NCBI RefSeq assembly: GCF_050320075.1
Contig: NZ_CP190021.1
DNA: 64,000 nt
Source of the DNA: Escherichia coli
GTDB taxonomy: Bacteria > Pseudomonadota > Gammaproteobacteria > Enterobacterales > Enterobacteriaceae
Direction: 5' to 3' (one strand)
This document shows, in pieces, positions 3,158-12,864 of the stretch (positions within the stretch are counted from its first letter, which is position 1; each line of letters starts with the position of its first letter). The notes under the pieces are model-generated. The model was given only the letters and a program-made list of their open reading frames with translations, was not told the origin of the DNA and made no database searches. The position numbers were made by a program, and so were the translations under genes.

Positions 3158-3750
3158 TGAAATCAGACGAAAAATACCAGGTTCCCGCGTGGATGCGACC
3201 TCTGTTGCCGTTGCTCTGCAACACCGGGGGGAACGATCCGGAAGAACTGCTGAATGATACAGAAACCACTGCCAGTGCGAATGTTGTCCGTTATGTACTG
3301 ATAGTTGCTGTGCGGTCGCAGGTTGATCTGCTGCAGCTTCTGTACAGGAAAGGGCTGTTGCGCACAGAGATACCAGGTGGCTTTTCACCGGAAGAAGCGC
3401 AGGCACTCCTGGATAATCTGGTGCGCAGCCATATCAGCAAGGCGCTGTCGGGCGAGCGAATGGCAGCCCGTGACAGAAATGCCGATCTGGCCTGGATTGG
3501 ACAGCAACTGGTCGATGACGCCTGGTTTGTCCGTGCCACACTGGAAGCGCATGGGATGAGCGTCGGAAATGAGAGTCCCCCTGCTCCGCCGGAGACAATG
3601 CCGGACATACAGACACGGGAACTGGTGATGTTGATCAAGCGACTGGCATCATCGCTGAAAGCGGTGAAACCGGACAGTTGTGTGGTGCGTGAAGCGCAGG
3701 ACTGGCTGCGCGACAGAAAACTTGTGGATATCACAGATATTCTCCGGTGA
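3154..3750 (+). CDS. conserved hypothetical leading-region protein (198 aa)
   Basis: ATG at 3154 overlaps the psiA stop (ATGA). GGAG lies 8 nt upstream. Clean ORF with no recognisable motif. Confidence 0.6.
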   Translation: MMKSDEKYQVPAWMRPLLPLLCNTGGNDPEELLNDTETTASANVVRYVLIVAVRSQVDLLQLLYRKGLLRTEIPGGFSPEEAQALLDNLVRSHISKALSGERMAARDRNADLAWIGQQLVDDAWFVRATLEAHGMSVGNESPPAPPETMPDIQTRELVMLIKRLASSLKAVKPDSCVVREAQDWLRDRKLVDITDILR

Positions 3751-3927
3751 ACCAGGCATGTATATTTTACGCAGGGACACGCCGATCATGATCGTTTCAT
3801 ATCAGGGGTGGTCTGGAGGTCATGCGGCGTGTCCTCTGCACTCGCCGGAATAAGGAAGTCGCCGGCGGCTCCGCTTTTACCCGGCCATGCGGGGCATGGC
3901 CTTGTGGGGTTTCAGCTCTGTGGCCTC

Positions 3928-4190
3928 AGCGTCGTGTGCGGGCTGTGCCGTGCCTCCATCTTAGCCGGGCTGGCAGGGATGCAAGGGTACGCTTCGCCGC
4001 TGCGGTCACCCGGTCCCTCCTTCCCGTCTGCCGTGATTTTCCGGTCGTTCGTCCGCTCAGGTTTCGCGGCCTCACCCTGCAACTCCCGTCAGCCGTGTGC
4101 GTCAGGCTGCGGCTTCCCTTGCGCCCCTGCATCCCCGCCTTATCGCCCGGCTTTTATGGAGGCACGGCACCGCCCGGTGTCGCAGAACAT
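3928..4190 (+). promoter_or_regulatory. Frpo/ssi-type long imperfect hairpin (candidate single-strand DNA promoter) upstream of ardA
   Basis: GTGCCGTGCCTCCAT (3945-3959) is the exact reverse complement of ATGGAGGCACGGCAC (4156-4170), and the flanking arms pair imperfectly. It ends about 20 nt before the ardA RBS. The GC-rich 'ORFs' here have no coding character. Confidence 0.65.
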
Positions 4191-4211
4191 GTGACTATGG
4201 AGGATTCGGGA

Positions 4212-4712
4212 ATGTCTGTTGTTGCACCTGCTGTATACGTTGGAACCTGGCACAAATACAACTGTGGAAGCATCGCCGGACGCTGGTTTGACCTGACCAC
4301 GTTTGATGATGAGCGCGACTTTTTCGCCGCCTGCCGTGCTCTTCACCAGGATGAAGCCGATCCTGAACTGATGTTTCAGGATTATGAGGGATTCCCGGGG
4401 AATATGGCCTCTGAATGCCATATCAACTGGGCCTGGGTTGAAGGCTTCCGCCTGGCACGGGATGAAGGCTGCGAAGAGGCTTATCGTCTCTGGGTGGAGG
4501 ATACCGGTGAGACGGATTTTGACACCTTCCGCGATGCCTGGTGGGGCGAGGCTGACAGTGAGGAGGCTTTTGCGGTTGAGTTCGCCAGTGATACCGGCCT
4601 GCTGGCTGACGTGCCGGAGACGGTGGCGCTCTATTTTGACTATGAGGCGTATGCGCGGGATTTATTCCTGGACTCCTTCACCTTTATTGACGGTCATGTG
4701 TTCCGTCGGTGA
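4212..4712 (+). CDS. ardA: ArdA anti-restriction protein (type I R-M inhibitor, DNA mimic)
   Basis: 166 aa starting [34 protein letters not shown], which matches ColIb-P9 ArdA as I recall it. Very acidic C-terminal half. GGAGGA RBS. Confidence 0.93.
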
Positions 4713-5080
4713 TTTACTCCCCCGCTCCGGCGGGGGTATGGCCTGCCAGGCCGCCGGAAAACCCTGGCAGGCTTACGCCTGCCTGAAATGCAGGAGGGCC
4801 GCGCCTGCGGCGCTGCCCTTCCTGCCCGTCATGGTGTGAGGCATTTTTCTGTTATGTCGTTTCTGTTGTTCTGATTTCCGGAGGCGGGGACACCTTCGGC
4901 TCCCGGCTGCCTGGCGGCATCCGGTCGTCAGGCCCGACTCCGACAGGCAGCTGCTGGCGCACCCGCCAGTCTCCGCCGAACCCGCTGGCGCGGTTTCGGG
5001 CTGCCGCTACGGTCCGATGTCTGAAAAACCAGGCTTGCAGCGACCGTTCCGGTCGCGCCGCCCCTGTCGCGCCGGAAACG

Positions 5081-5420
5081 GCGCTCCCTGCACACCTGAC
5101 GGTGTGTAAGGCCACTGCGCCTGATGGCGCAGTCAACCCTTCCGCCGCCACCCCTGCGGCCTGTTTCCCGCTGTGGACTTTCCGGGGGCTGGAGTAACCA
5201 CATCCCGTTTCAGCAGTCCAGGGGAAGATATACCGTCCACAAAATTTTTAGCCATAAACCCGGCAAAAAATTTTGCGTCCGCCCCCGGACAGCTGCCCCG
5301 TGACGTGGTGACGGACGCCCCATCGGAAAGGTCCACTGCGGGGAGAAACCCCGAAGAAGTGGACGGCAGAAGGGGCTTTCGCCCCTCCGGGGAGCAACCG
5401 GTCGGCCCGGCGACCTGATT
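5081..5420 (+). repeat. Frpo/ssi-like element, copy A (about 320 bp, homologous to 7959-8300)
   Basis: Blocks shared with copy B: GCGCTCCCTGCACACCT.ACGGTGTGTAAGGCCACTGCGCCTGATGGCGCAG ... GGACTTTCCGGGGG ... CCACATCCCGTTTCAG ... CCCCGGACA.CTGCCCCGTGACGTGGTGA ... CGGAAAGGTCCACTGCGGGGA. Internal long-range complementarity (GGACTTTCCG / CGGAAAGGTCC; CAAAATTTTT / AAAAATTTTG at the apex). Ends at a strong RBS. Confidence 0.7.
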
Positions 5421-5440
5421 CAGCAGAAGGAGACGTTTTC

Positions 5441-5875
5441 ATGACAGTCAGCAGCACGATTTCCGTTTTTTGCCGCGACGGGGTGTTCCGTACCGTTTAC
5501 TGCCACCTGCACGGGGAGCCGACCTGGAACGGTCGCATCCTGCATACCCACTATGCCACCGGTCAGCAGGCCGAAGCCCTGGTTGAACACGGTGATATCC
5601 GTTGCCTCGGTCCCCGTTGCGACAAACCCGCCGGGCATACGCTTCAGAACCCGGTGGACGGTGTGACGGCTTATTACGGACGTGACAGTGGTTTCCGGAT
5701 GGACAGTGAGGCGCGTGAGTACCGTTCTTTCAGGGAGGCTATTGCCACTGAAAGCACTGAAGAGGTGCGCTTCCATTATGTGTTCATCGACGGCTACTGG
5801 AAGGTGATGTACCGCACGCCGGAAGGCTGGAAGATGAAAGCGCTCGCGCTGGCACTGCGTCGCTGTCCGAAATGA
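5441..5875 (+). CDS. hypothetical leading-region protein (144 aa)
   Basis: AAGGAG RBS 8 nt upstream. Lies immediately downstream of Frpo-like copy A. No motif recognised. Confidence 0.65.
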   Translation: MTVSSTISVFCRDGVFRTVYCHLHGEPTWNGRILHTHYATGQQAEALVEHGDIRCLGPRCDKPAGHTLQNPVDGVTAYYGRDSGFRMDSEAREYRSFREAIATESTEEVRFHYVFIDGYWKVMYRTPEGWKMKALALALRRCPK

Positions 5876-5968
5876 AAAAAAGGCAGGGCGATAAACCCTG
5901 CCTCTCTCCGCCGGCGCTTCCCCGCCAGGAAGTCCGGCATCTCAATCACTATCTATGGAGATTATGCC

Positions 5969-6235
5969 ATGAGACCATCAATTATCTTCGCAACCGCCGA
6001 GTATGTAAAGCGTCTGCGTGAAGAGTGCCTGCGGGAGAATAAACCCCTGCACCGCCATACCCGCTTCAGACGTCAGGAGCTGGCACAGGATGAGATTAAC
6101 CCGGACGTCCTGGCGATGAGCGGCCATATCGCCAGACGCTGCAGTGAGCAGAAGCGGGTGCGTATCCCCGCTATGAAAGTCAGCGAATGGGGCCACCTGC
6201 TCCGCGCGCTTGAAATTGAGCGGGTCTGCCACTGA
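5969..6235 (+). CDS. hypothetical protein (88 aa)
   Basis: GGAG RBS and a basic protein. No family recognised. Confidence 0.45.
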   Translation: MRPSIIFATAEYVKRLREECLRENKPLHRHTRFRRQELAQDEINPDVLAMSGHIARRCSEQKRVRIPAMKVSEWGHLLRALEIERVCH

Positions 6236-6299
6236 TTAACCCTTGCCGTCTGCCTGTGCAGGCGGCAGGATACGTTCAGACATCTCACCAGGAGGAACC

Positions 6300-7238
6300 G
6301 TGAGTCAGAAGAAAACCACCACGACGCCCACGCCGCATGATGCCGCGTTCCGGTCGTTCCTGGCGAATCCCGACGTCGCCAGAGATTTTCTGGAACTGCA
6401 TCTTCCGGCGGAGTACCGGCAGTTGTGCGACCTGTCCACGCTGAAGCTGGAACCCGCCACCTTTGTTGAGCCGGACCTGCATCAGTACGCCAGCGATATC
6501 CTCTGGAGTGTGAAAACCACCGGGGGTGAAGATGGCTATGTTTATACGCTCATCGAGCACCAGAGCACCGAAAATCTGTACATGCCTTTCCGCATGTTAC
6601 GTTACAGTGTGGCGGCGATGCAGAGACATCTGGAGCAGCACAAAACGTTGCCACTGGTGATTCCTGTACTGTTCTATCATGGTGAGCGCAGCCCGTACCC
6701 GTACAGCATGAACTGGCTGGACTGTTTTGAGAATCCGGCACTTGCGGCTAAAATATACACAAAGCCGTTTCCGCTGGTTGATATCACTGTCGTTGATGAC
6801 AATGAAATCATGAACCATCGCCGGATGGCCGCACTGACGCTGCTGATGAAGCATATCCGCCATCGTGACATGATGGAGCTGCTGGACAAACTCCCGCAGG
6901 TCATGGTGGAAATTTCAGACGAGCAGGTGCGTGTTCTGATTCATTACATCGTTAACGCAGGGGACTCTGTATCACCGGAATTTATGCGGGCGCTGGCTGA
7001 GCGTCTGCCGCAGCATGAGGATAAACTGATGACTATCGCAGAACGTCTTGAGCAAAAAGGTCGCCAGGAGGGCAGGATGGAAGGACGCATGGAAGGACGC
7101 ATGGAAGGACGCATGGAAGGAGCGCTTGAAAAAGCCCTGGCTATTGCGTGCCAGCTTCAGAAAATGGGGATGACGCCGGAGCAGATTAAGCAGGCTACCG
7201 GACTTTCCGATGACGAACTGAAGAAAATCACTCACTGA
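6300..7238 (+). CDS. Rpn family recombination-promoting nuclease (YhgA-like, PD-(D/E)XK); full-length 'RpnL'
   Basis: GTG at 6300 follows GGAGGA. N-terminal signature PHDAAFRSFL...DFL..HLP ... SDILWSV ... Y.L.EHQS ... MPFRMLRY ... PLVIPVLFYHG is typical of RpnA-E/YhgA-like proteins. Confidence 0.85.
   Translation: MSQKKTTTTPTPHDAAFRSFLANPDVARDFLELHLPAEYRQLCDLSTLKLEPATFVEPDLHQYASDILWSVKTTGGEDGYVYTLIEHQSTENLYMPFRMLRYSVAAMQRHLEQHKTLPLVIPVLFYHGERSPYPYSMNWLDCFENPALAAKIYTKPFPLVDITVVDDNEIMNHRRMAALTLLMKHIRHRDMMELLDKLPQVMVEISDEQVRVLIHYIVNAGDSVSPEFMRALAERLPQHEDKLMTIAERLEQKGRQEGRMEGRMEGRMEGRMEGALEKALAIACQLQKMGMTPEQIKQATGLSDDELKKITH
7029..7238 (+). CDS. predicted intragenic small protein (RpnS-type antitoxin, 69 aa) in frame within rpn
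   Basis: In-frame ATG at 7029 with GAGGA 8 nt upstream. It starts exactly where the free-standing paralog (7300-7458) starts (MTIAERL.QKG). It encompasses the EGRM repeat. Confidence 0.45.
   Translation: MTIAERLEQKGRQEGRMEGRMEGRMEGRMEGALEKALAIACQLQKMGMTPEQIKQATGLSDDELKKITH
7068..7124 (+). repeat. 12-nt tandem repeat (GAAGGACGCATG, about 4.7 units) encoding (EGRM)n
   Basis: Read directly: gagggcaggatg gaaggacgcatg gaaggacgcatg gaaggacgcatg gaaggagcg. In frame inside rpn. Confidence 0.95.
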
Positions 7239-7250
7239 GTAAACATCACA

Positions 7251-7275
7251 GCCCGGCAAAATGCCGGGCTTTTTT
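7251..7275 (+). terminator. intrinsic terminator after rpn
   Basis: GCCCGGC-aaaat-GCCGGGC followed by TTTTTT. Confidence 0.8.
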
Positions 7276-7299
7276 GTCAGCAGGAGCAGAGCAAATAGC

Positions 7300-7458
7300 A
7301 TGACGATTGCAGAACGTCTTATTCAAAAAGGCGCACTTGAAGTGGCGCGGGAAATAGCCTGCCGGCTGCGGGATATGGGCTGGACGCCGGAACGGATTCA
7401 GGAGGCAACCGGACTTTCCGGTGAAGAACTGAAAAAGCTGTTTCCTGATGAGCAGTAG
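7300..7458 (+). CDS. stand-alone RpnS-like small protein (52 aa), paralog of the Rpn C-terminal domain without the EGRM repeat
   Basis: MTIAERLIQKGALEVAREIACRLRDMGWTPERIQEATGLSGEELKKL aligns with Rpn residues MTIAERLEQKG-(EGRM)n-ALEKALAIACQLQKMGMTPEQIKQATGLSDDELKKI. GGAG lies 13 nt upstream, which is suboptimal. Confidence 0.55.
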   Translation: MTIAERLIQKGALEVAREIACRLRDMGWTPERIQEATGLSGEELKKLFPDEQ

Positions 7459-7488
7459 CCTGGCATTCAGCCAGGCTGTGAATCACGC

Positions 7489-7740
7489 TCACACATCCTC
7501 TGCCGTTTCCCCCAGTTCATTTTCCAGTCGCCTGATGATATCTGCCTTACGCATCCCCTGCATGTGAGGCAGCAGGTCACGGACTGAAAGTGCCTGGGTG
7601 GTCCTCCAGACGGTGACGTCCACCTGTTCCGCATTTTCCCAGGCGTGCCATGTTCTCTGCGTCACGCCAAATTCTCTGGCCGCTTTTTCGCGTGACCAGA
7701 GCATGCTTTTTCGCCAGATTCGCAGTTCCCAGCCGGTCAT
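7489..7740 (-). CDS. small XRE/Cro-like HTH regulator (83 aa), the only minus-strand gene between psiB and the Frpo-B copy
   Basis: HTH-like segment REKAAREFGVTQRTWHAWE. Twin palindromes lie directly upstream. Confidence 0.65.
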   Translation of the reverse strand: MTGWELRIWRKSMLWSREKAAREFGVTQRTWHAWENAEQVDVTVWRTTQALSVRDLLPHMQGMRKADIIRRLENELGETAEDV

Positions 7741-7754
7741 AAAACACCTTTGAA

Positions 7755-7842
7755 AAAGTGAAAAAACTTCACTTTATTTTATCATCACAATTGCCAAATC
7801 AGCGCGATAAATAAGTGTAAAAAAGTGAAGAAATTTCACTTT
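7755..7842. promoter_or_regulatory. two 21-bp palindromic operator-like sites AAAGTGAA-N5-TTCACTTT
   Basis: 7755-7775 (aaagtgaa aaaac ttcacttt) and 7822-7842 (aaagtgaa gaaat ttcacttt). Centres are 67 bp apart, in the AT-rich gap between the HTH gene and Frpo-like copy B. Confidence 0.7.
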
Positions 7843-7958
7843 TTTTGCTTGTAAATGTCGTGCGGTTTTCTCTGTTTTCACCTGTGCGGGAGTGGTGTGC
7901 CAGTGACCACCACATGCCATTGTTGTGCCGTCGTTTTTCTTCAGTCGCGCCGTATGCG

Positions 7959-8300
7959 GCGCTCCCTGCACACCTTACGGTGTGTAAGGCCACTGCGCCT
8001 GATGGCGCAGCTGTCTCTGCCTGTCTGCCGCCGCACTGCGGCCTGTTCTCCGCAGACGGACTTTCCGGGGGTACATACATGACCACATCCCGTTTCAGTC
8101 GTCCAGGGGGGAGATGTACCAGCCACAAAACTTTTTGCCGCAGGCGTCAAAAACTTTTGCGTCTGCCCCCGGACAACTGCCCCGTGACGTGGTGAGCGTC
8201 CCCCGTCGGAAAGGTCCACTGCGGGGAAATCCCCGAAGACCCGGACGGCAGAAGGAGCTTCGCTCCTCCGGGAAATGACCTGGCTGTCCCGGCAGTCGTG
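7959..8300 (+). repeat. Frpo/ssi-like element, copy B
   Basis: Homologous to 5081-5420 (see copy A). Ends at the AGGAG RBS of the next gene. Confidence 0.7.
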
Positions 8301-8319
8301 ACGATGAGGAGACAATGTG

Positions 8320-9168
8320 ATGAATCAGACTTTACCCACTGCTGACCTGAATACTGCCGGCACGACAGATGTTATTCCGTCTGTGGCTATCGACCGCATC
8401 ATCGCGCAGCGTAACGAAGGTATTGCACTGTTCATGCAGGCGATGGAATGCCTGGCGACAGCGCGCAAGATTCTGCTCGATGCGTCAGGTGATATTTTTC
8501 TTTACGGGTTTGAAGACTGCGTGACTGATTCCGTTCGTCGCATAGATAAACCGGAAGAAGCGAAAAGGAATATCACCCGTCTTGCCGACCGGAAAATCTG
8601 GGACCGCCTGATGACAGATACGGGCATGTACACCTTCATGAGTTCATGCCAGCGTGATGAGTGGAACAGCCAGCTGATGAGCGACACCTGTCCTGAAATC
8701 ACCCTGGACAATGTACTGGCAACATTCCGCCATCTGAATGCCTGCAAGATGCAGACATTTGAACAGGGACTGATTGATGTCTACCGGAAATTGTCATGGG
8801 ATTACAGAACCAATAATCCCTGCCGTCTGGGTAAGAAAATCATTATTGAAAACCTGCTGTACCGCTGGAGTAACGGGCGTGTGACGCTGGACTGCAGCGG
8901 ACGGGAGGCACTGGATGACCTGGTACGTCCGTTTTATCTGCTGGAGGGGCGCAACGTTCCTGACTTCAGGAACAGTATCGGGGCGCAGTATGGTGAATTT
9001 CTCGGGAACGGCGACAATGTCGGTAAGCTGTTAGAAGGGGAATATTTTACGGTGCGTGGCTACCAGAAAGGGACCGTACACATTGTCTTTAAGCGTTCTG
9101 ACCTTGTTGAAAAACTGAATGATATTATTGCACGGCATTATCCAGGTGCATTGCCGCCACGAGTCTGA
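8320..9168 (+). CDS. conserved hypothetical leading-region protein (282 aa; possibly DUF4942-like, from memory only)
   Basis: AGGAG at 8306-8310. A GTG at 8317 or ATG at 8320 could be the start. Immediately downstream of Frpo-like copy B and followed by a terminator. Confidence 0.65.
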   Translation: MNQTLPTADLNTAGTTDVIPSVAIDRIIAQRNEGIALFMQAMECLATARKILLDASGDIFLYGFEDCVTDSVRRIDKPEEAKRNITRLADRKIWDRLMTDTGMYTFMSSCQRDEWNSQLMSDTCPEITLDNVLATFRHLNACKMQTFEQGLIDVYRKLSWDYRTNNPCRLGKKIIIENLLYRWSNGRVTLDCSGREALDDLVRPFYLLEGRNVPDFRNSIGAQYGEFLGNGDNVGKLLEGEYFTVRGYQKGTVHIVFKRSDLVEKLNDIIARHYPGALPPRV

Positions 9169-9179
9169 TTAAACAGAAA

Positions 9180-9210
9180 AGCCCTGGTATTTATGCCGGG
9201 GCTTTTTTTT
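9180..9210 (+). terminator. intrinsic terminator
   Basis: AGCCCTGG-tatttatg-CCGGGGCT (one mismatch) followed by T8. Confidence 0.75.
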
Positions 9211-9253
9211 CTGTAATCATCATAATCTCAGAACACGATGTGACATTGTCACA

Positions 9254-9595
9254 TCAATTGTTGTTCATATCGATGCCATCTTTCCTGCCTGAATCTGTCT
9301 TTTTAGGTGCTGTTTTAGAGGAAGAACGGCGGGATGGTTTTTTCGATTCTGCTTCCCGAATAATGTCACGAAGTGCCTTCTCTCCTACTTCATACCCTGC
9401 ATTTTTGAGCGTGTCACGAACATCTGCCAGTGTATAACCCTTTGTCCTTACCAGGACAATAATGTCATCACGAATGGCATCAAGAAAATCACGCAATGTT
9501 TTCCGTTGAGCGGTGAGATCTGGCAATTCCGATAAAGCAGCTTTTGCCAGCTGGATGTCATCATCTGAGTAAAATTTTTTAGAAGCCATTGGCAC
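9254..9595 (-). CDS. hypothetical protein with Lys/Ser-rich basic tail (113 aa), adjacent to oriT
   Basis: Clean ORF with GGAGAG upstream of the GTG start. The C-terminus KKPSRRSSSKTAPKKTDSGRK suggests nucleic-acid binding. Function unknown. Confidence 0.55.
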   Translation of the reverse strand: MPMASKKFYSDDDIQLAKAALSELPDLTAQRKTLRDFLDAIRDDIIVLVRTKGYTLADVRDTLKNAGYEVGEKALRDIIREAESKKPSRRSSSKTAPKKTDSGRKDGIDMNNN

Positions 9596-9738
9596 TTTCT
9601 CTCCGTTTCATGTTGAAGTCTGATTTTATCATCAAAAACTGACTCCTGGCAGGGCTGCGCCCTGCCTCTGCCGTCTGCATAAGACTATGATGCACAAAAA
9701 TAACAGGCTATAATGGCCTGAAAAACGGGACAGGATGT

Positions 9739-9800
9739 GCAATTGTATAACCGCGCACGCGCGATTATACAATTGCCTCCTGGTCAGGGCTTCGCCCCGA
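9739..9800. other. oriT: oriT core (17-bp inverted repeat plus adjacent nick region)
   Basis: GCAATTGTATAACCGCG (9739-9755) versus CGCGATTATACAATTGC (9760-9776) is a 17-bp inverted repeat with one mismatch, followed by CTCCTGGTCAGGGC directly upstream of nikA. This matches the published description of R64 oriT as I recall it. The exact nick position is not determinable here. Confidence 0.75.
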
Positions 9801-9821
9801 CACCCCAGTAAGGAGCTGACC

Positions 9822-10154
9822 GTGAGTGATAAACGTCAAAGAAGTGGTAGTGAAAGACGGCAAAAGACGATCCTGAGAGCGGTCCGGTTCTCACCGGATG
9901 AGGATGAAACTATCTGTAAGAATGCTGAAGATTCCGGACTTACTGTATCTGCTTACATCCGAAATGCAGCACTGAATAAGCGAATTAACTCCCGTACAGA
10001 TGATGCTTTTCTGAAGGAGTTAATGAGACTGGGAAGGATGCAGAAGCATCTGTTTGTTCAGGGAAAAAGAACCGGTGACAAGGAATACGCAGAAGTGCTT
10101 GTTGCCATAACCGAACTTACAAATACATTGCGTAAACAGTTAATGGAAGGTTGA
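9822..10154 (+). CDS. nikA: NikA relaxosome accessory protein (RHH, 110 aa)
   Basis: GTG start after TAAGGAG. 110 aa equals the R64 NikA length. Position is between oriT and nikB. Confidence 0.9.
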   Translation: MSDKRQRSGSERRQKTILRAVRFSPDEDETICKNAEDSGLTVSAYIRNAALNKRINSRTDDAFLKELMRLGRMQKHLFVQGKRTGDKEYAEVLVAITELTNTLRKQLMEG

Positions 10155-10164
10155 GGATTCTCCG

Positions 10165-12864
10165 GTGAATGCAGTCATTCCGAAAAAGAGAAGGGACGGC
10201 AAGTCTTCGTTCGAAGACCTGGTATCCTACGTCTCTGTCCGGGATGACATGACCGATGAGGAACTGGATTTATCTTCTTCTTCGCAGGCTGAACAACCGC
10301 ACCGAAGCCGTTTCAGTCGCCTTGTTGATTATGCGACACGTCTTCGAAATGAGTCATTCGTGGCGCTGGTTGATGTCATGAAGGACGGCTGCGAATGGGT
10401 CAACTTTTATGGTGTCACCTGCTTTCATAACTGTACTTCTCTTGAAACTGCCGCTGCAGATATGGAGTACATTGCCCGGCAGGCACACTATGCAAAAGAT
10501 GACACTGACCCTGTTTTTCACTACATCCTTTCCTGGCAGTCACATGAAAGCCCGCGTCCGGAACAGATTTATGACAGTGTACGTCATACGCTGAAATCAC
10601 TCGGCCTTGCCGACCATCAGTATGTCTCTGCCGTGCATACTGATACAGATAATCTGCACGTCCATGTGGCTGTTAACCGGGTACACCCTGAAACGGGTTA
10701 TCTGAACCGGTTATCATGGAGTCAGGAAAAACTCAGTCGTGCCTGCCGTGAGCTTGAACTGAAGCATGGTTTTGCTCCGGATAACGGTTGCTGGGTCCAT
10801 GCGCCGGGAAATCGTATCGTTCGCAAAACTGCCGTTGAACGTGATCGCCAGAACGCCTGGACACGCGGAAAAAAACAAACTTTTCGTGAGTATGTTGCGC
10901 AGACAGCGGTCGCTGGTTTACGCAGTGAACCTGTACATGACTGGTTATCCCTGCATCGTCGTCTTGCGGAAGATGGTCTGTACCTGTCTCAGATGGACGG
11001 AAAATTTCTGGTGATGGATGGCTGGGATCGCAACAGGGAAGGTGTACAGCTTGACTCGTTTGGTCCCTCCTGGTGTGCAGAAAAACTCATGAAAAAAATG
11101 GGTGACTACACGCCAGTGCCAAAAGACATTTTCAGCCAGGTGGAAGCACCAGGACGCTATAATCCGGACTTCATTGCAGCTGATGTTCGCCCGGAAAAAA
11201 TCGCTGAAACAGAAAGTCTGCAGCAGTATGCCTGTCGTCATCTTGGAGAACGTCTGCCGGAAATGGCACGGGAAGGACGGCTGGAAAACTGCCTGGCTAT
11301 TCACCGCACACTGGCTGAAGCGGGATTATGGATGCGTGTTCAGCATGGTCACCTGGTTATCTGTGACGGTTATGATCATAACCAGACTCCCGTTCGTGCT
11401 GACAGCGTATGGTCACTGCTGACGCTCGACAATGTGAATCAACTCGATGGTGGCTGGCAGCCTGTACCAACAGATATTTTCCGCCAGGTTACGCCAACAG
11501 AACGCTTCCGTGGTCGTCGTATGGAGAGCTGTCCTGCGACCGATAAAGAATGGCACCGTATGCGTACAGGTACGGGGCCGCAGGGGGCTATCAAACGCGA
11601 ACTGTTTTCTGACAAAGAAAGTCTGTGGGGATACAGCATCAGCCATTGTAGCCCTCAGATTGAAGAAATGATCACACAGGGTGAGTTTACCTGGCAGCGT
11701 TGTCATGAGTTGTTTGCACAACAGGGACTGATGCTACAGAAACAACATCACGGGCTTGTTGTCGTTGATGCTTTTAATCATGAGCAAACGCCGGTGAAAG
11801 CCAGCAGCATTCATCCTGATCTGACACTGGGGCGTGCGGAGCCACAGGCCGGACCTTTTGTGAGTGCTCCAGCAGATTTGTTTGACAGGGTGCAACCTGA
11901 AAATCGCTATAACCCGGAGCTGGCTGTCAGTGACAGGTACGGGGTCAGCAGTAAACGTGACCCAATGCTGCGCCGGCAGCGACGTGAAGCCAGGGCTGAG
12001 GCCCGTGCTGACCTGCGTGCCCGCTATCTGGCATGGCGTGAACAATGGCGTAAACCGGATCTGCGTTATGGGGAACGTTGTCGGGAAATTCATCAGGCAT
12101 GCCGTCTGCGGAAGTCACACATTCGTGCGCAGTACGATGATCCGGCATTACGTAAGCTGCATTATCACATTGCAGAAGTTCAGCGAATGCAGGCATTGAT
12201 CAGGCTGAAAGAAGACATCAGGGATGAGCGACAGAAACTTATTGCTGACGGGAAATGGTATCCACCCTCTTACCGTCAGTGGGTCGAAATTCAGGCTGCT
12301 CAGGGAGACAGGGCTGCTGTATCGCAGTTGAGAGGCTGGGATTATCGCGATCGCCGTAAAGACAAGTCACGCACAACGACGACAGACCGCTGTGTCGTGC
12401 TTTGTGAACCGGGCGGAACGCCGGTATACGGTAATACCGGTGATCTCGAGGCCCGTCTGCAGAAGAACGGGAGTGTTCGTTTCCGTGACCGTCGGACGGG
12501 AGAGTTTGTCTGTACGGATTATGGTGACAGAGTTGTTTTCCGTAATCACCATGACCGCAATGCGCTGGCAGATAAACTGGATTTGATTGCACCGGTATTA
12601 TTCGGGCGTGATCCACGCATGGGGTTTGAACCAGAAGGAAACGACAAACAATTTAACCAGGTCTTTGCTGAAATGGTTGCCTGGCATAATGTGACAGGCC
12701 GTACCGGTCACGAAGACTACAGGATTACGCGACCGGACGTGGATCATCACCGTGAAGGAAGTGAACGCTACTACCGCGATTATATCGCGGCGAACAGCAA
12801 CGATGACGCATCACTGCCTCCGCCGGAGCAGGATAAACGCTGGGAACCGCCTTCTCCAGGTTAA
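10165..12864 (+). CDS. nikB: NikB relaxase (MOBP-type, 899 aa)
   Basis: 899 aa equals R64 NikB. The relaxase histidine motif region is HTDTDNLHVHVAVNRV. Confidence 0.92.
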   Translation: MNAVIPKKRRDGKSSFEDLVSYVSVRDDMTDEELDLSSSSQAEQPHRSRFSRLVDYATRLRNESFVALVDVMKDGCEWVNFYGVTCFHNCTSLETAAADMEYIARQAHYAKDDTDPVFHYILSWQSHESPRPEQIYDSVRHTLKSLGLADHQYVSAVHTDTDNLHVHVAVNRVHPETGYLNRLSWSQEKLSRACRELELKHGFAPDNGCWVHAPGNRIVRKTAVERDRQNAWTRGKKQTFREYVAQTAVAGLRSEPVHDWLSLHRRLAEDGLYLSQMDGKFLVMDGWDRNREGVQLDSFGPSWCAEKLMKKMGDYTPVPKDIFSQVEAPGRYNPDFIAADVRPEKIAETESLQQYACRHLGERLPEMAREGRLENCLAIHRTLAEAGLWMRVQHGHLVICDGYDHNQTPVRADSVWSLLTLDNVNQLDGGWQPVPTDIFRQVTPTERFRGRRMESCPATDKEWHRMRTGTGPQGAIKRELFSDKESLWGYSISHCSPQIEEMITQGEFTWQRCHELFAQQGLMLQKQHHGLVVVDAFNHEQTPVKASSIHPDLTLGRAEPQAGPFVSAPADLFDRVQPENRYNPELAVSDRYGVSSKRDPMLRRQRREARAEARADLRARYLAWREQWRKPDLRYGERCREIHQACRLRKSHIRAQYDDPALRKLHYHIAEVQRMQALIRLKEDIRDERQKLIADGKWYPPSYRQWVEIQAAQGDRAAVSQLRGWDYRDRRKDKSRTTTTDRCVVLCEPGGTPVYGNTGDLEARLQKNGSVRFRDRRTGEFVCTDYGDRVVFRNHHDRNALADKLDLIAPVLFGRDPRMGFEPEGNDKQFNQVFAEMVAWHNVTGRTGHEDYRITRPDVDHHREGSERYYRDYIAANSNDDASLPPPEQDKRWEPPSPG

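Follow-up and report, generated by a model that had tools for sequence, protein, structure and literature searches.

ygfB, a DUF4942 gene with its own single-strand promoter and terminator beside oriT of IncI1 plasmids, as a candidate early anti-defence unit

For two IncIγ plasmids the segment around the origin of transfer (oriT) has been described as ygeA - ssi1 - ygfB - t1 - yggA - oriT - nikA - nikB, with ygeA labelled as a helix-turn-helix (HTH) regulator, ssi1 as a single-strand promoter homologous to Frpo, t1 as a rho-independent terminator and ygfB as an uncharacterised gene with a DUF4942 domain (Benz & Hall 2023, PMC10104558 Dataset S3); in the numbering of that work ssi3 drives ssb-yfhA-psiBA. 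At 15 min after mating, transcription of six operons in the leading region of plasmid pESBL has risen by up to about 500-fold; three of these are driven by the class-1 single-stranded DNA (ssDNA) promoters ssi1-3, whose start sites were confirmed by 5' rapid amplification of cDNA ends. In a survey of leading regions, gene family 24 is listed with 2171 copies in leading regions vs one elsewhere, on the strand that can be read from the transferred strand, under the name 'Uncharacterized; DUF4942; Methyltransferase' (Samuel et al. 2024, PMC11541004, Supplementary Table 1). Here we analyse ygfB (8320-9168, plus strand) in a stretch of 64,000 nucleotides from Escherichia coli (NCBI RefSeq assembly GCF_050320075.1, contig NZ_CP190021.1), which is referred to as the window. 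We regard it as solid that ygfB is a self-contained one-gene unit, transcribed while the entering DNA is single-stranded and silenced once the duplex forms. What its product does is a more tentative matter; our favoured reading, which we hold to be quite possible, if short of probable, is that this early leading-region unit supplies an accessory anti-defence or anti-restriction factor during establishment. The unit and its surroundings up to oriT comprise the following features:

7944..8272, minus strand: ssi1, a Frpo-like single-strand promoter element (ColIb-P9/IncI naming), from paralogy, ssDNA fold and PMC10104558 Dataset S3
8306-8311, plus strand: Shine-Dalgarno sequence GAGGAG, 8 nt 5' of the ygfB ATG, read from the sequence
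8320..9168, plus strand: coding sequence of ygfB, standalone DUF4942 protein WP_001077023.1, from open reading frame (ORF) call, Pfam and identical plasmid annotation
9181..9210, plus strand: intrinsic terminator t1, a 9-bp GC-rich stem with a 4-nt loop followed by eight U, from the RNA fold
9254..9589, minus strand: yggA, 111 aa, the gene next to oriT, which bounds the ygfB unit without belonging to it, from ORF call, plasmid annotation and literature
9727..9809, minus strand: oriT, with an inverted repeat at 9739-9776; the pESBL oriT annotation (70354-70436) maps here by offset

The ygfB ORF starts with the ATG at 8320, ends with a stop codon at 9168 and codes for 282 amino acids, an in-frame GTG being located one codon earlier (8317). 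Upstream, ssi1 is the second of two Frpo-like copies in the window, being 81% identical to the first (5066-5391), and it shares 80% identity with a third one, which in identical plasmids precedes ssb and lies just beyond the window. When the transferred, i.e. minus, strand of 7930-8316 is folded as ssDNA it reaches -110 kcal/mol (z = -9.0), with none of 100 shuffled sequences being as stable, and a 118-nt core of ssi1 is 74% identical to the element of the F plasmid. Inspection by eye gave no convincing assignment of -35/-10 hexamers within the ssi1 hairpin, and a search of 4500-10200 returned no Rfam family. On other plasmids the region 5' of ygfB homologues is strongly structured at some loci and not at others, a comparison in which spurious ORFs are called inside hairpins and the z-score, taken as the best of nine windows, is biased. 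Downstream, the hairpin of t1 (9181-9202) together with its U run (9203-9210) amounts to -25.7 kcal/mol (z = -6.9); it escaped a simple pattern scan and was found by RNA folding. As four A precede its stem, t1 could also serve the convergent yggA transcript.

The direction of transfer decides which strand can be read. On the minus strand, CATCCTG/T (9737-9730, cut between G and T) is what we take to be the nick, as judged from the MOBP consensus and the oriT sequences of R64 and RP4. From this putative position the minus strand would enter the recipient 5'-first, towards lower coordinates, and ygfB lies on the leading side of oriT with its coding sequence on the plus strand, the complement of the transferred strand, nikA and nikB being located to the right of oriT. 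Thus, the incoming single strand could serve as template for genes on the plus strand such as ygfB, but not for yggA. The ygfB gene lies about 560 bp from oriT, and gene and promoter hairpin all fall within some 1.8 kb of the inferred nick. An earlier note on this stretch, made from the letters alone, had proposed the 282-aa ORF, a Frpo-like hairpin and a terminator of its own and, faintly, membership of the DUF4942 family, and all of these were borne out. It had also taken the gene for the last one before oriT and the first coding DNA to reach the recipient, which needs correction, since yggA intervenes before the oriT repeat; ygfB is the oriT-proximal gene of the plus strand and hence first only among the genes that can be read from the transferred strand.

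These features suggest the following course of events. The minus strand would enter 5'-first from the nick near 9730, bringing in, within the first 1.8 kb or so, yggA in unreadable orientation, then the template of ygfB and then ssi1. Once inside, ssi1 would fold into a long hairpin that is used as promoter by the host RNA polymerase as long as the DNA is single-stranded, transcription would run back towards oriT through ygfB and end at t1, and the promoter would be turned off as soon as the complementary strand is made. YgfB would then act in the recipient during establishment as an accessory anti-defence factor, its putative conserved pocket (W94, D200, R203, H254 and N267) binding either DNA or part of a restriction-modification system of the host, so that the incoming DNA escapes restriction. 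In IncI1 plasmids it may act alone, whereas in other mobile elements it may be tethered to an orphan N6-adenine methyltransferase.

The timing in this scheme draws on pESBL. Its leading region contains exactly three Frpo-class copies, one of which is 98.7% identical to the element in the window and lies directly 5' of a 99% identical ygfB. Because this near-identical element precedes ygfB and ssi1-3 drive induced operons, ygfB is probably induced early after entry, too. The immediate-early role put forward in the earlier note thus fits the published data, if indirectly, and the almost exclusive occurrence of the gene family in leading regions points the same way.

In the Pfam search YgfB matched DUF4942 (PF13708) with an E-value of 2.4e-50 and 171.3 bits (gathering cut-off 25 bits), residues 91-276 corresponding to positions 5-189 of the 190 in the profile, and NCBIfam has no model that covers it. 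The protein has a mass of 32 kDa and, with 38 acidic and 36 basic residues, a near-neutral isoelectric point (pI) of 6.0, the family median being 7.2. An AlphaFold model built from 32 homologues (pLDDT, the per-residue confidence, 86; predicted template modelling score, pTM, 0.72) shows a helical N-terminal half (residues 21-158) and an α/β C-terminal half (166-273). Neither profile searches of the PDB sequences (profiles A1 and A3) nor a fold search of the PDB returned a solved relative, and the predicted fold is thus one without a solved relative. In 60 diverse members with a mean identity of 35%, W94, L158, P167, D200, H254 and N267 are invariant and R203, S21, R31, W115, T135, W160, N165, D215 and R217 are each kept by at least 90% of members; in an alignment of 245 sequences the conservation is 1.00 for W94, D200 and N267, 0.99 for H254 and 0.98 for R203. 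YgfB itself retains all five of these residues. Among the papers searched, those that mention the domain report no function for it.

Two obvious identities were considered and rejected. YgfB is not a DNA methyltransferase: it contains neither the S-adenosylmethionine-binding motif I nor motif IV, (D/N/S)PP(Y/F/W), it matches no methyltransferase family in Pfam and its model matches no Rossmann-like fold. As motifs, Pfam match and fold match are all absent, the methyltransferase label is wrong for YgfB; in PMC11541004 it derives from the source names. Nor is YgfB an acidic DNA mimic of the ArdA/Ocr type, given its pI and the lack of a match to the ArdA or Ocr fold. Beyond the Pfam domain, DUF4942 proteins have a conserved N-terminal helix (residues 19-55, approximately, in YgfB; 11-43 in the member P0258), which in eight of the 60 members weakly matches the Pfam family kleA_kleC, KorC-regulated proteins of IncP plasmids, one match reaching the gathering score of 25 bits.

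We found 514 homologues of YgfB in the protein database, and a profile search of 1.84 billion representatives gave 3226 clusters at 50% identity, mostly standalone proteins of 260-290 aa. Motif IV is found in none of 320 relatives of standalone size, whereas motifs I and IV are both present in all of 24 longer relatives. In these, an N-terminal DUF4942 domain is followed by a linker and a small methyltransferase domain of about 190 aa, with motif I preceding NPPF, and all 24 fusions keep W94, D200, R203, H254 and N267. The methyltransferase half weakly resembles M.TaqI and the methylase Mad2 of the MADS system. Phage families include both layouts, the standalone one and the fusion, and phrog_6263, named 'DNA methyltransferase', has that of the fusion. 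The fusions that were looked up lie within long runs of small mobile-element genes that all point the same way, with no nuclease gene adjacent to them.

Two individual loci are worth recording. On a contig of Hafnia paralvei (833-1462 and 7947-8825) a standalone DUF4942 gene is preceded, at a distance of 7 kb and in the same orientation, by a gene for a standalone homologue of the methyltransferase half; it is the sole locus of this kind, and the pair may be a split version of the fusion. In Rubrivivax gelatinosus (3188-8801 and 9001-10638) a fusion gene is flanked on one side by TerB, BrxC/BrxD-like and DEAD-helicase genes and on the other by DpdA-like, PAPS-reductase-like and cytosine methylase genes, which, judged from the gene content, looks like the junction of a defence cluster with a DNA-modification or anti-defence cluster.

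We found DUF4942 homologues in over 5000 records of plasmids, of which 92% are conjugative. On homologue-bearing IncL plasmids of about 63.5 kb, presumably the pOXA-48-like ones, the gene shares the leading region with ssb and with genes for an antirestriction and a JAB/RadC protein. We further surveyed 80 loci from different Enterobacterales species; the underlying genome scan used peptide patterns derived from Enterobacterales sequences and returned only Enterobacterales. At 17 of the 21 loci of plasmid type, again from different species, a nikA-like gene or traM lies downstream of the DUF4942 gene, 0.6-6.4 kb away. Thus, the oriT-proximal position is kept across two unrelated relaxase families, MOBP and MOBF. 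A chromosomal subfamily (about 37-40% identity) forms the last gene of a DUF932 - antirestriction (PF03230) - RadC - CbeA - CbtA - DUF4942 module, cbtA being located directly upstream of the DUF4942 gene at 34-35 of the 80 loci. Within 8 kb of the DUF4942 gene RadC is encoded at 51, CbtA at 48 and an antirestriction gene at 26 of the loci, and the IncI1 leading region also holds ardA, a KlcA-type antirestriction gene and an M.EcoGIX-like methylase.

The near-confinement to leading regions, the antirestriction neighbours and the recurrent tethering to orphan adenine methyltransferases argue for a role in protecting or establishing incoming DNA, and this is why the accessory anti-defence reading is the one we favour. 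Several observations weigh against it. The literature searched contains no experiment that links any DUF4942 protein to restriction or another defence. A small methyltransferase of the fused type is encoded near a standalone DUF4942 gene at only 1 of the 80 loci. A link from the fusions to the plasmid's own leading-region methylase was considered and rejected, as the latter is a permuted β-class N6_N4 methyltransferase unrelated to the fused domain. The AlphaFold model of one fusion has two confidently predicted domains, a low-confidence linker and a pTM of 0.51, so that a DUF4942 domain tightly packed on the methyltransferase is not supported and the fusion may merely tether two independent activities. 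Moreover, the polar residues are strongly conserved over wide evolutionary distances, more like those of an enzyme or of a site for a fixed ligand than those of a variable recognition domain, which argues against variable sequence recognition and keeps an enzymatic reading alive. Finally, in a pESBL transposon screen comprising one K-12 to K-12 mating, the ygfB orthologue Hp22 scored 1.00 for non-essential and 0.00 for required for transfer. The donor of this screen reportedly modifies EcoKI sites, and ardA scored the same as Hp22; the screen thus appears to be blind to anti-restriction roles. A bolder form of the anti-defence reading takes DUF4942 for a new kind of anti-defence effector with an unseen fold, which by means of the putative W-D-R-H-N pocket would disarm or divert a restriction-modification system of the host, or another that targets DNA, within the first minutes after entry, alone in IncI1, IncL (pOXA-48-like) and F-like plasmids and tethered to a methyltransferase in integrative and conjugative elements and phages; although this is possible, we consider it less likely than not.

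The same conservation pattern is an argument for DUF4942 being an enzyme of undescribed chemistry, whose active site, formed by D200, H254, N267 and R203, would modify or cleave nucleic acid, a nucleotide signal or a host protein in the recipient, the fusions then being 'polyvalent' proteins with two activities. W94, D200, H254 and N267 do not vary in the 60 diverse members, R203 reaches at least 90%, and all fusions keep the set; the lack of confident packing between the domains of the fusion model and the near absence of cognate methyltransferases around standalone genes would suit an independent activity as well. Nevertheless, no catalytic family was matched in Pfam, NCBIfam, PADLOC (above noise), the PDB sequences or the PDB folds, YgfB shows no recognisable metal-binding or nucleophile motif, and the grouping of the conserved residues into one site is predicted from sequence conservation, which leaves this alternative doubtful. 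Alternatively, YgfB might tune host physiology or the processing of plasmid DNA at establishment, e.g. second-strand synthesis, SOS or the cell cycle, in the manner of PsiB, SSB and YfjB and without any defence target. It shares its regulatory class with ssb and psiB, which also lie behind ssi elements, the chromosomal subfamily directly follows CbtA, a toxin that targets the cytoskeleton, and the KleA/KleC-like helix may be added to this list; leading-region proteins that reprogramme the host exist, as described in PMC13370423. However, the recurrent fusion partner of DUF4942 is a DNA methyltransferase rather than a replication or SOS protein, and the K-12 transposon screen showed no establishment defect, so that we consider it unlikely.

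Further alternatives are less attractive still. HsdS provides sequence recognition for HsdM, and Ral stimulates modification by EcoKI; by analogy, YgfB could recognise DNA on behalf of a methyltransferase whose gene lies elsewhere, in host or plasmid, and direct protective methylation of the incoming DNA. As no separate recognition domain follows NPPF in the fused methyltransferase domains, DUF4942 could by elimination supply the DNA binding, and the Hafnia paralvei locus with its separate methyltransferase homologue, 7 kb upstream on the same strand, would be in line with such a pairing. A specificity domain would be expected to vary more than this family does, though, a separately encoded cognate methyltransferase was found neither in the window nor at 79 of the 80 loci, and the packing of the fusion model is not confident, which together make a recognition partner improbable. 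A donor-side relaxosome component or transfer regulator is very improbable. The proximity of ygfB to oriT and nikA, and its position beside yggA, would fit such a role, and the neighbourhood can hold regulators: in pCTX-M3 (IncM) deletion of the yggA homologue orf35 raises oriT mobilisation more than 200-fold, which suggests that orf35 acts as a repressor of transfer. But in pESBL NikA and NikB are required for transfer (1.00), whereas ygfB, judged by this screen from the literature, is not required for conjugative transfer as are relaxosome, tra and nik genes, and no gain was noted; a promoter of the type of ssi1 is active only on ssDNA, and homologues reside in phages and chromosomal islands without a nearby relaxase. 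Promoter type and transposon data both speak against a donor-side role.

The wider region shows the same organisation in many plasmids. The YgfB sequence is 100% identical to WP_001077023.1, i.e. YgfB of IncI1/Iγ plasmids, an annotation carried by more than 1900 plasmids, and 7700-10200 is matched over its full length in more than 1900 plasmids, many of them 100% identical and nearly all of them conjugative IncI1/Iγ plasmids from Escherichia and Salmonella. In an identical plasmid record the genes follow one another as ssb, DUF905, a ParB-like gene, psiB, psiA, a hypothetical gene, ardA, two hypothetical genes, an Rpn nuclease gene, a small ORF, an HTH regulator on the minus strand, the DUF4942 gene, a minus-strand gene that PGAP names 'MobC', nikA, nikB and trbCBA. 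The region is the classical IncI1 leading region adjoining oriT; gene, promoter, terminator and family have all been documented before, in the literature and in standard annotation, and as a sequence observation nothing here is new. The label 'MobC' on yggA is a mislabel. In R64 the leading region has been described as beginning with yggA, the pESBL table has it directly before oriT, and no Pfam or NCBIfam family scores above threshold for it. Upstream of the ygfB unit, one more gene is annotated:

7489-7740, minus strand: ygeA, HTH regulator, from plasmid annotation and PMC10104558 Dataset S3

Two AT-rich near-palindromes (7753-7778 and 7819-7844; AAAAAGTGAA..TTCACTTT), spaced by 67 bp, lie upstream of ygeA and adjoin ssi1; from their sequence they look like candidate operator sites for the ygeA regulator. 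At the edge of the ssi1 hairpin PGAP annotates a hypothetical protein of 65 aa (WP_001161115.1; 7774-7971, minus strand), a small gene that may be an artefact; both GC-rich hairpin elements are crossed by several long spurious ORFs on both strands. The first Frpo-like copy, probably ssi2, precedes an ORF of 144 aa (5441-5875), another uncharacterised early gene, which has no Pfam family and matches the phage families phrog_1987 and phrog_23089. The Rpn (YhgA-like) nuclease gene (6243-7238) contains a short tandem repeat coding for (G)RMEGRMEGRMEG (7057-7121), and 3' of it the DNA of a 65-aa ORF (7261-7458) duplicates the 3' end of rpn with 75-84% identity.

DUF4942 is among the largest uncharacterised families that are confined to plasmid leading regions, with homologues in more than 5000 sequenced plasmids. 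Its carriers include IncI1, IncL (pOXA-48-like) and F-like plasmids that spread extended-spectrum β-lactamase and carbapenemase genes, and the gene often lies within a few kb of oriT. Knowing what YgfB does would supply a missing piece in the account of how resistance plasmids become established in a new host and, should YgfB indeed disable a host defence, a new protein fold would join the anti-defence repertoire.

Compared with known systems, YgfB of R64/IncI1 and the DUF4942 proteins named YdiA of F-like plasmids do not differ, as they belong to the same protein family and agree in leading-region position and coding strand. A search of classical F at 46-68 kb gave no DUF4942 gene, whereas many F-like plasmids have one near traM. 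The oriT-proximal Frpo-type element of the F plasmid is a positional analogue of ssi1, the genes downstream of it being transcribed towards oriT as well, but the cargo differs: a small hypothetical protein and DUF932 follow the F element, DUF4942 follows ssi1. With ArdA and KlcA/ArdB, YgfB has in common the orientation, the leading region, a zygotic induction from ssDNA promoters that is probable for ygfB, and the dispensability in laboratory matings, although there is no likeness in sequence or fold, YgfB with its pI of 6.0 is set apart from acidic DNA mimics, and ardA and klcA are preceded by class-2 hairpins whereas ygfB has a class-1 promoter of the Frpo type. M.EcoGIX of pESBL, a single-strand-specific orphan methyltransferase, is likewise encoded by a leading-region gene, one that is induced early, as ygfB probably is, and it is tied to restriction escape; unlike YgfB, it is a true β-class N6_N4 methyltransferase with DPPY near its N-terminus, unrelated to DUF4942 and to the fused methyltransferase domain. 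Close to YgfB are also the fusions (e.g. P0224, P0246, P0265 and phrog_6263), which share with YgfB a homologous N-terminal DUF4942 region of some 270 aa, the same invariant residues and a location in arrays of mobile-element genes; YgfB, however, stops after DUF4942, i.e. before the point at which the fusions continue with motif I and NPPF/NPPY.
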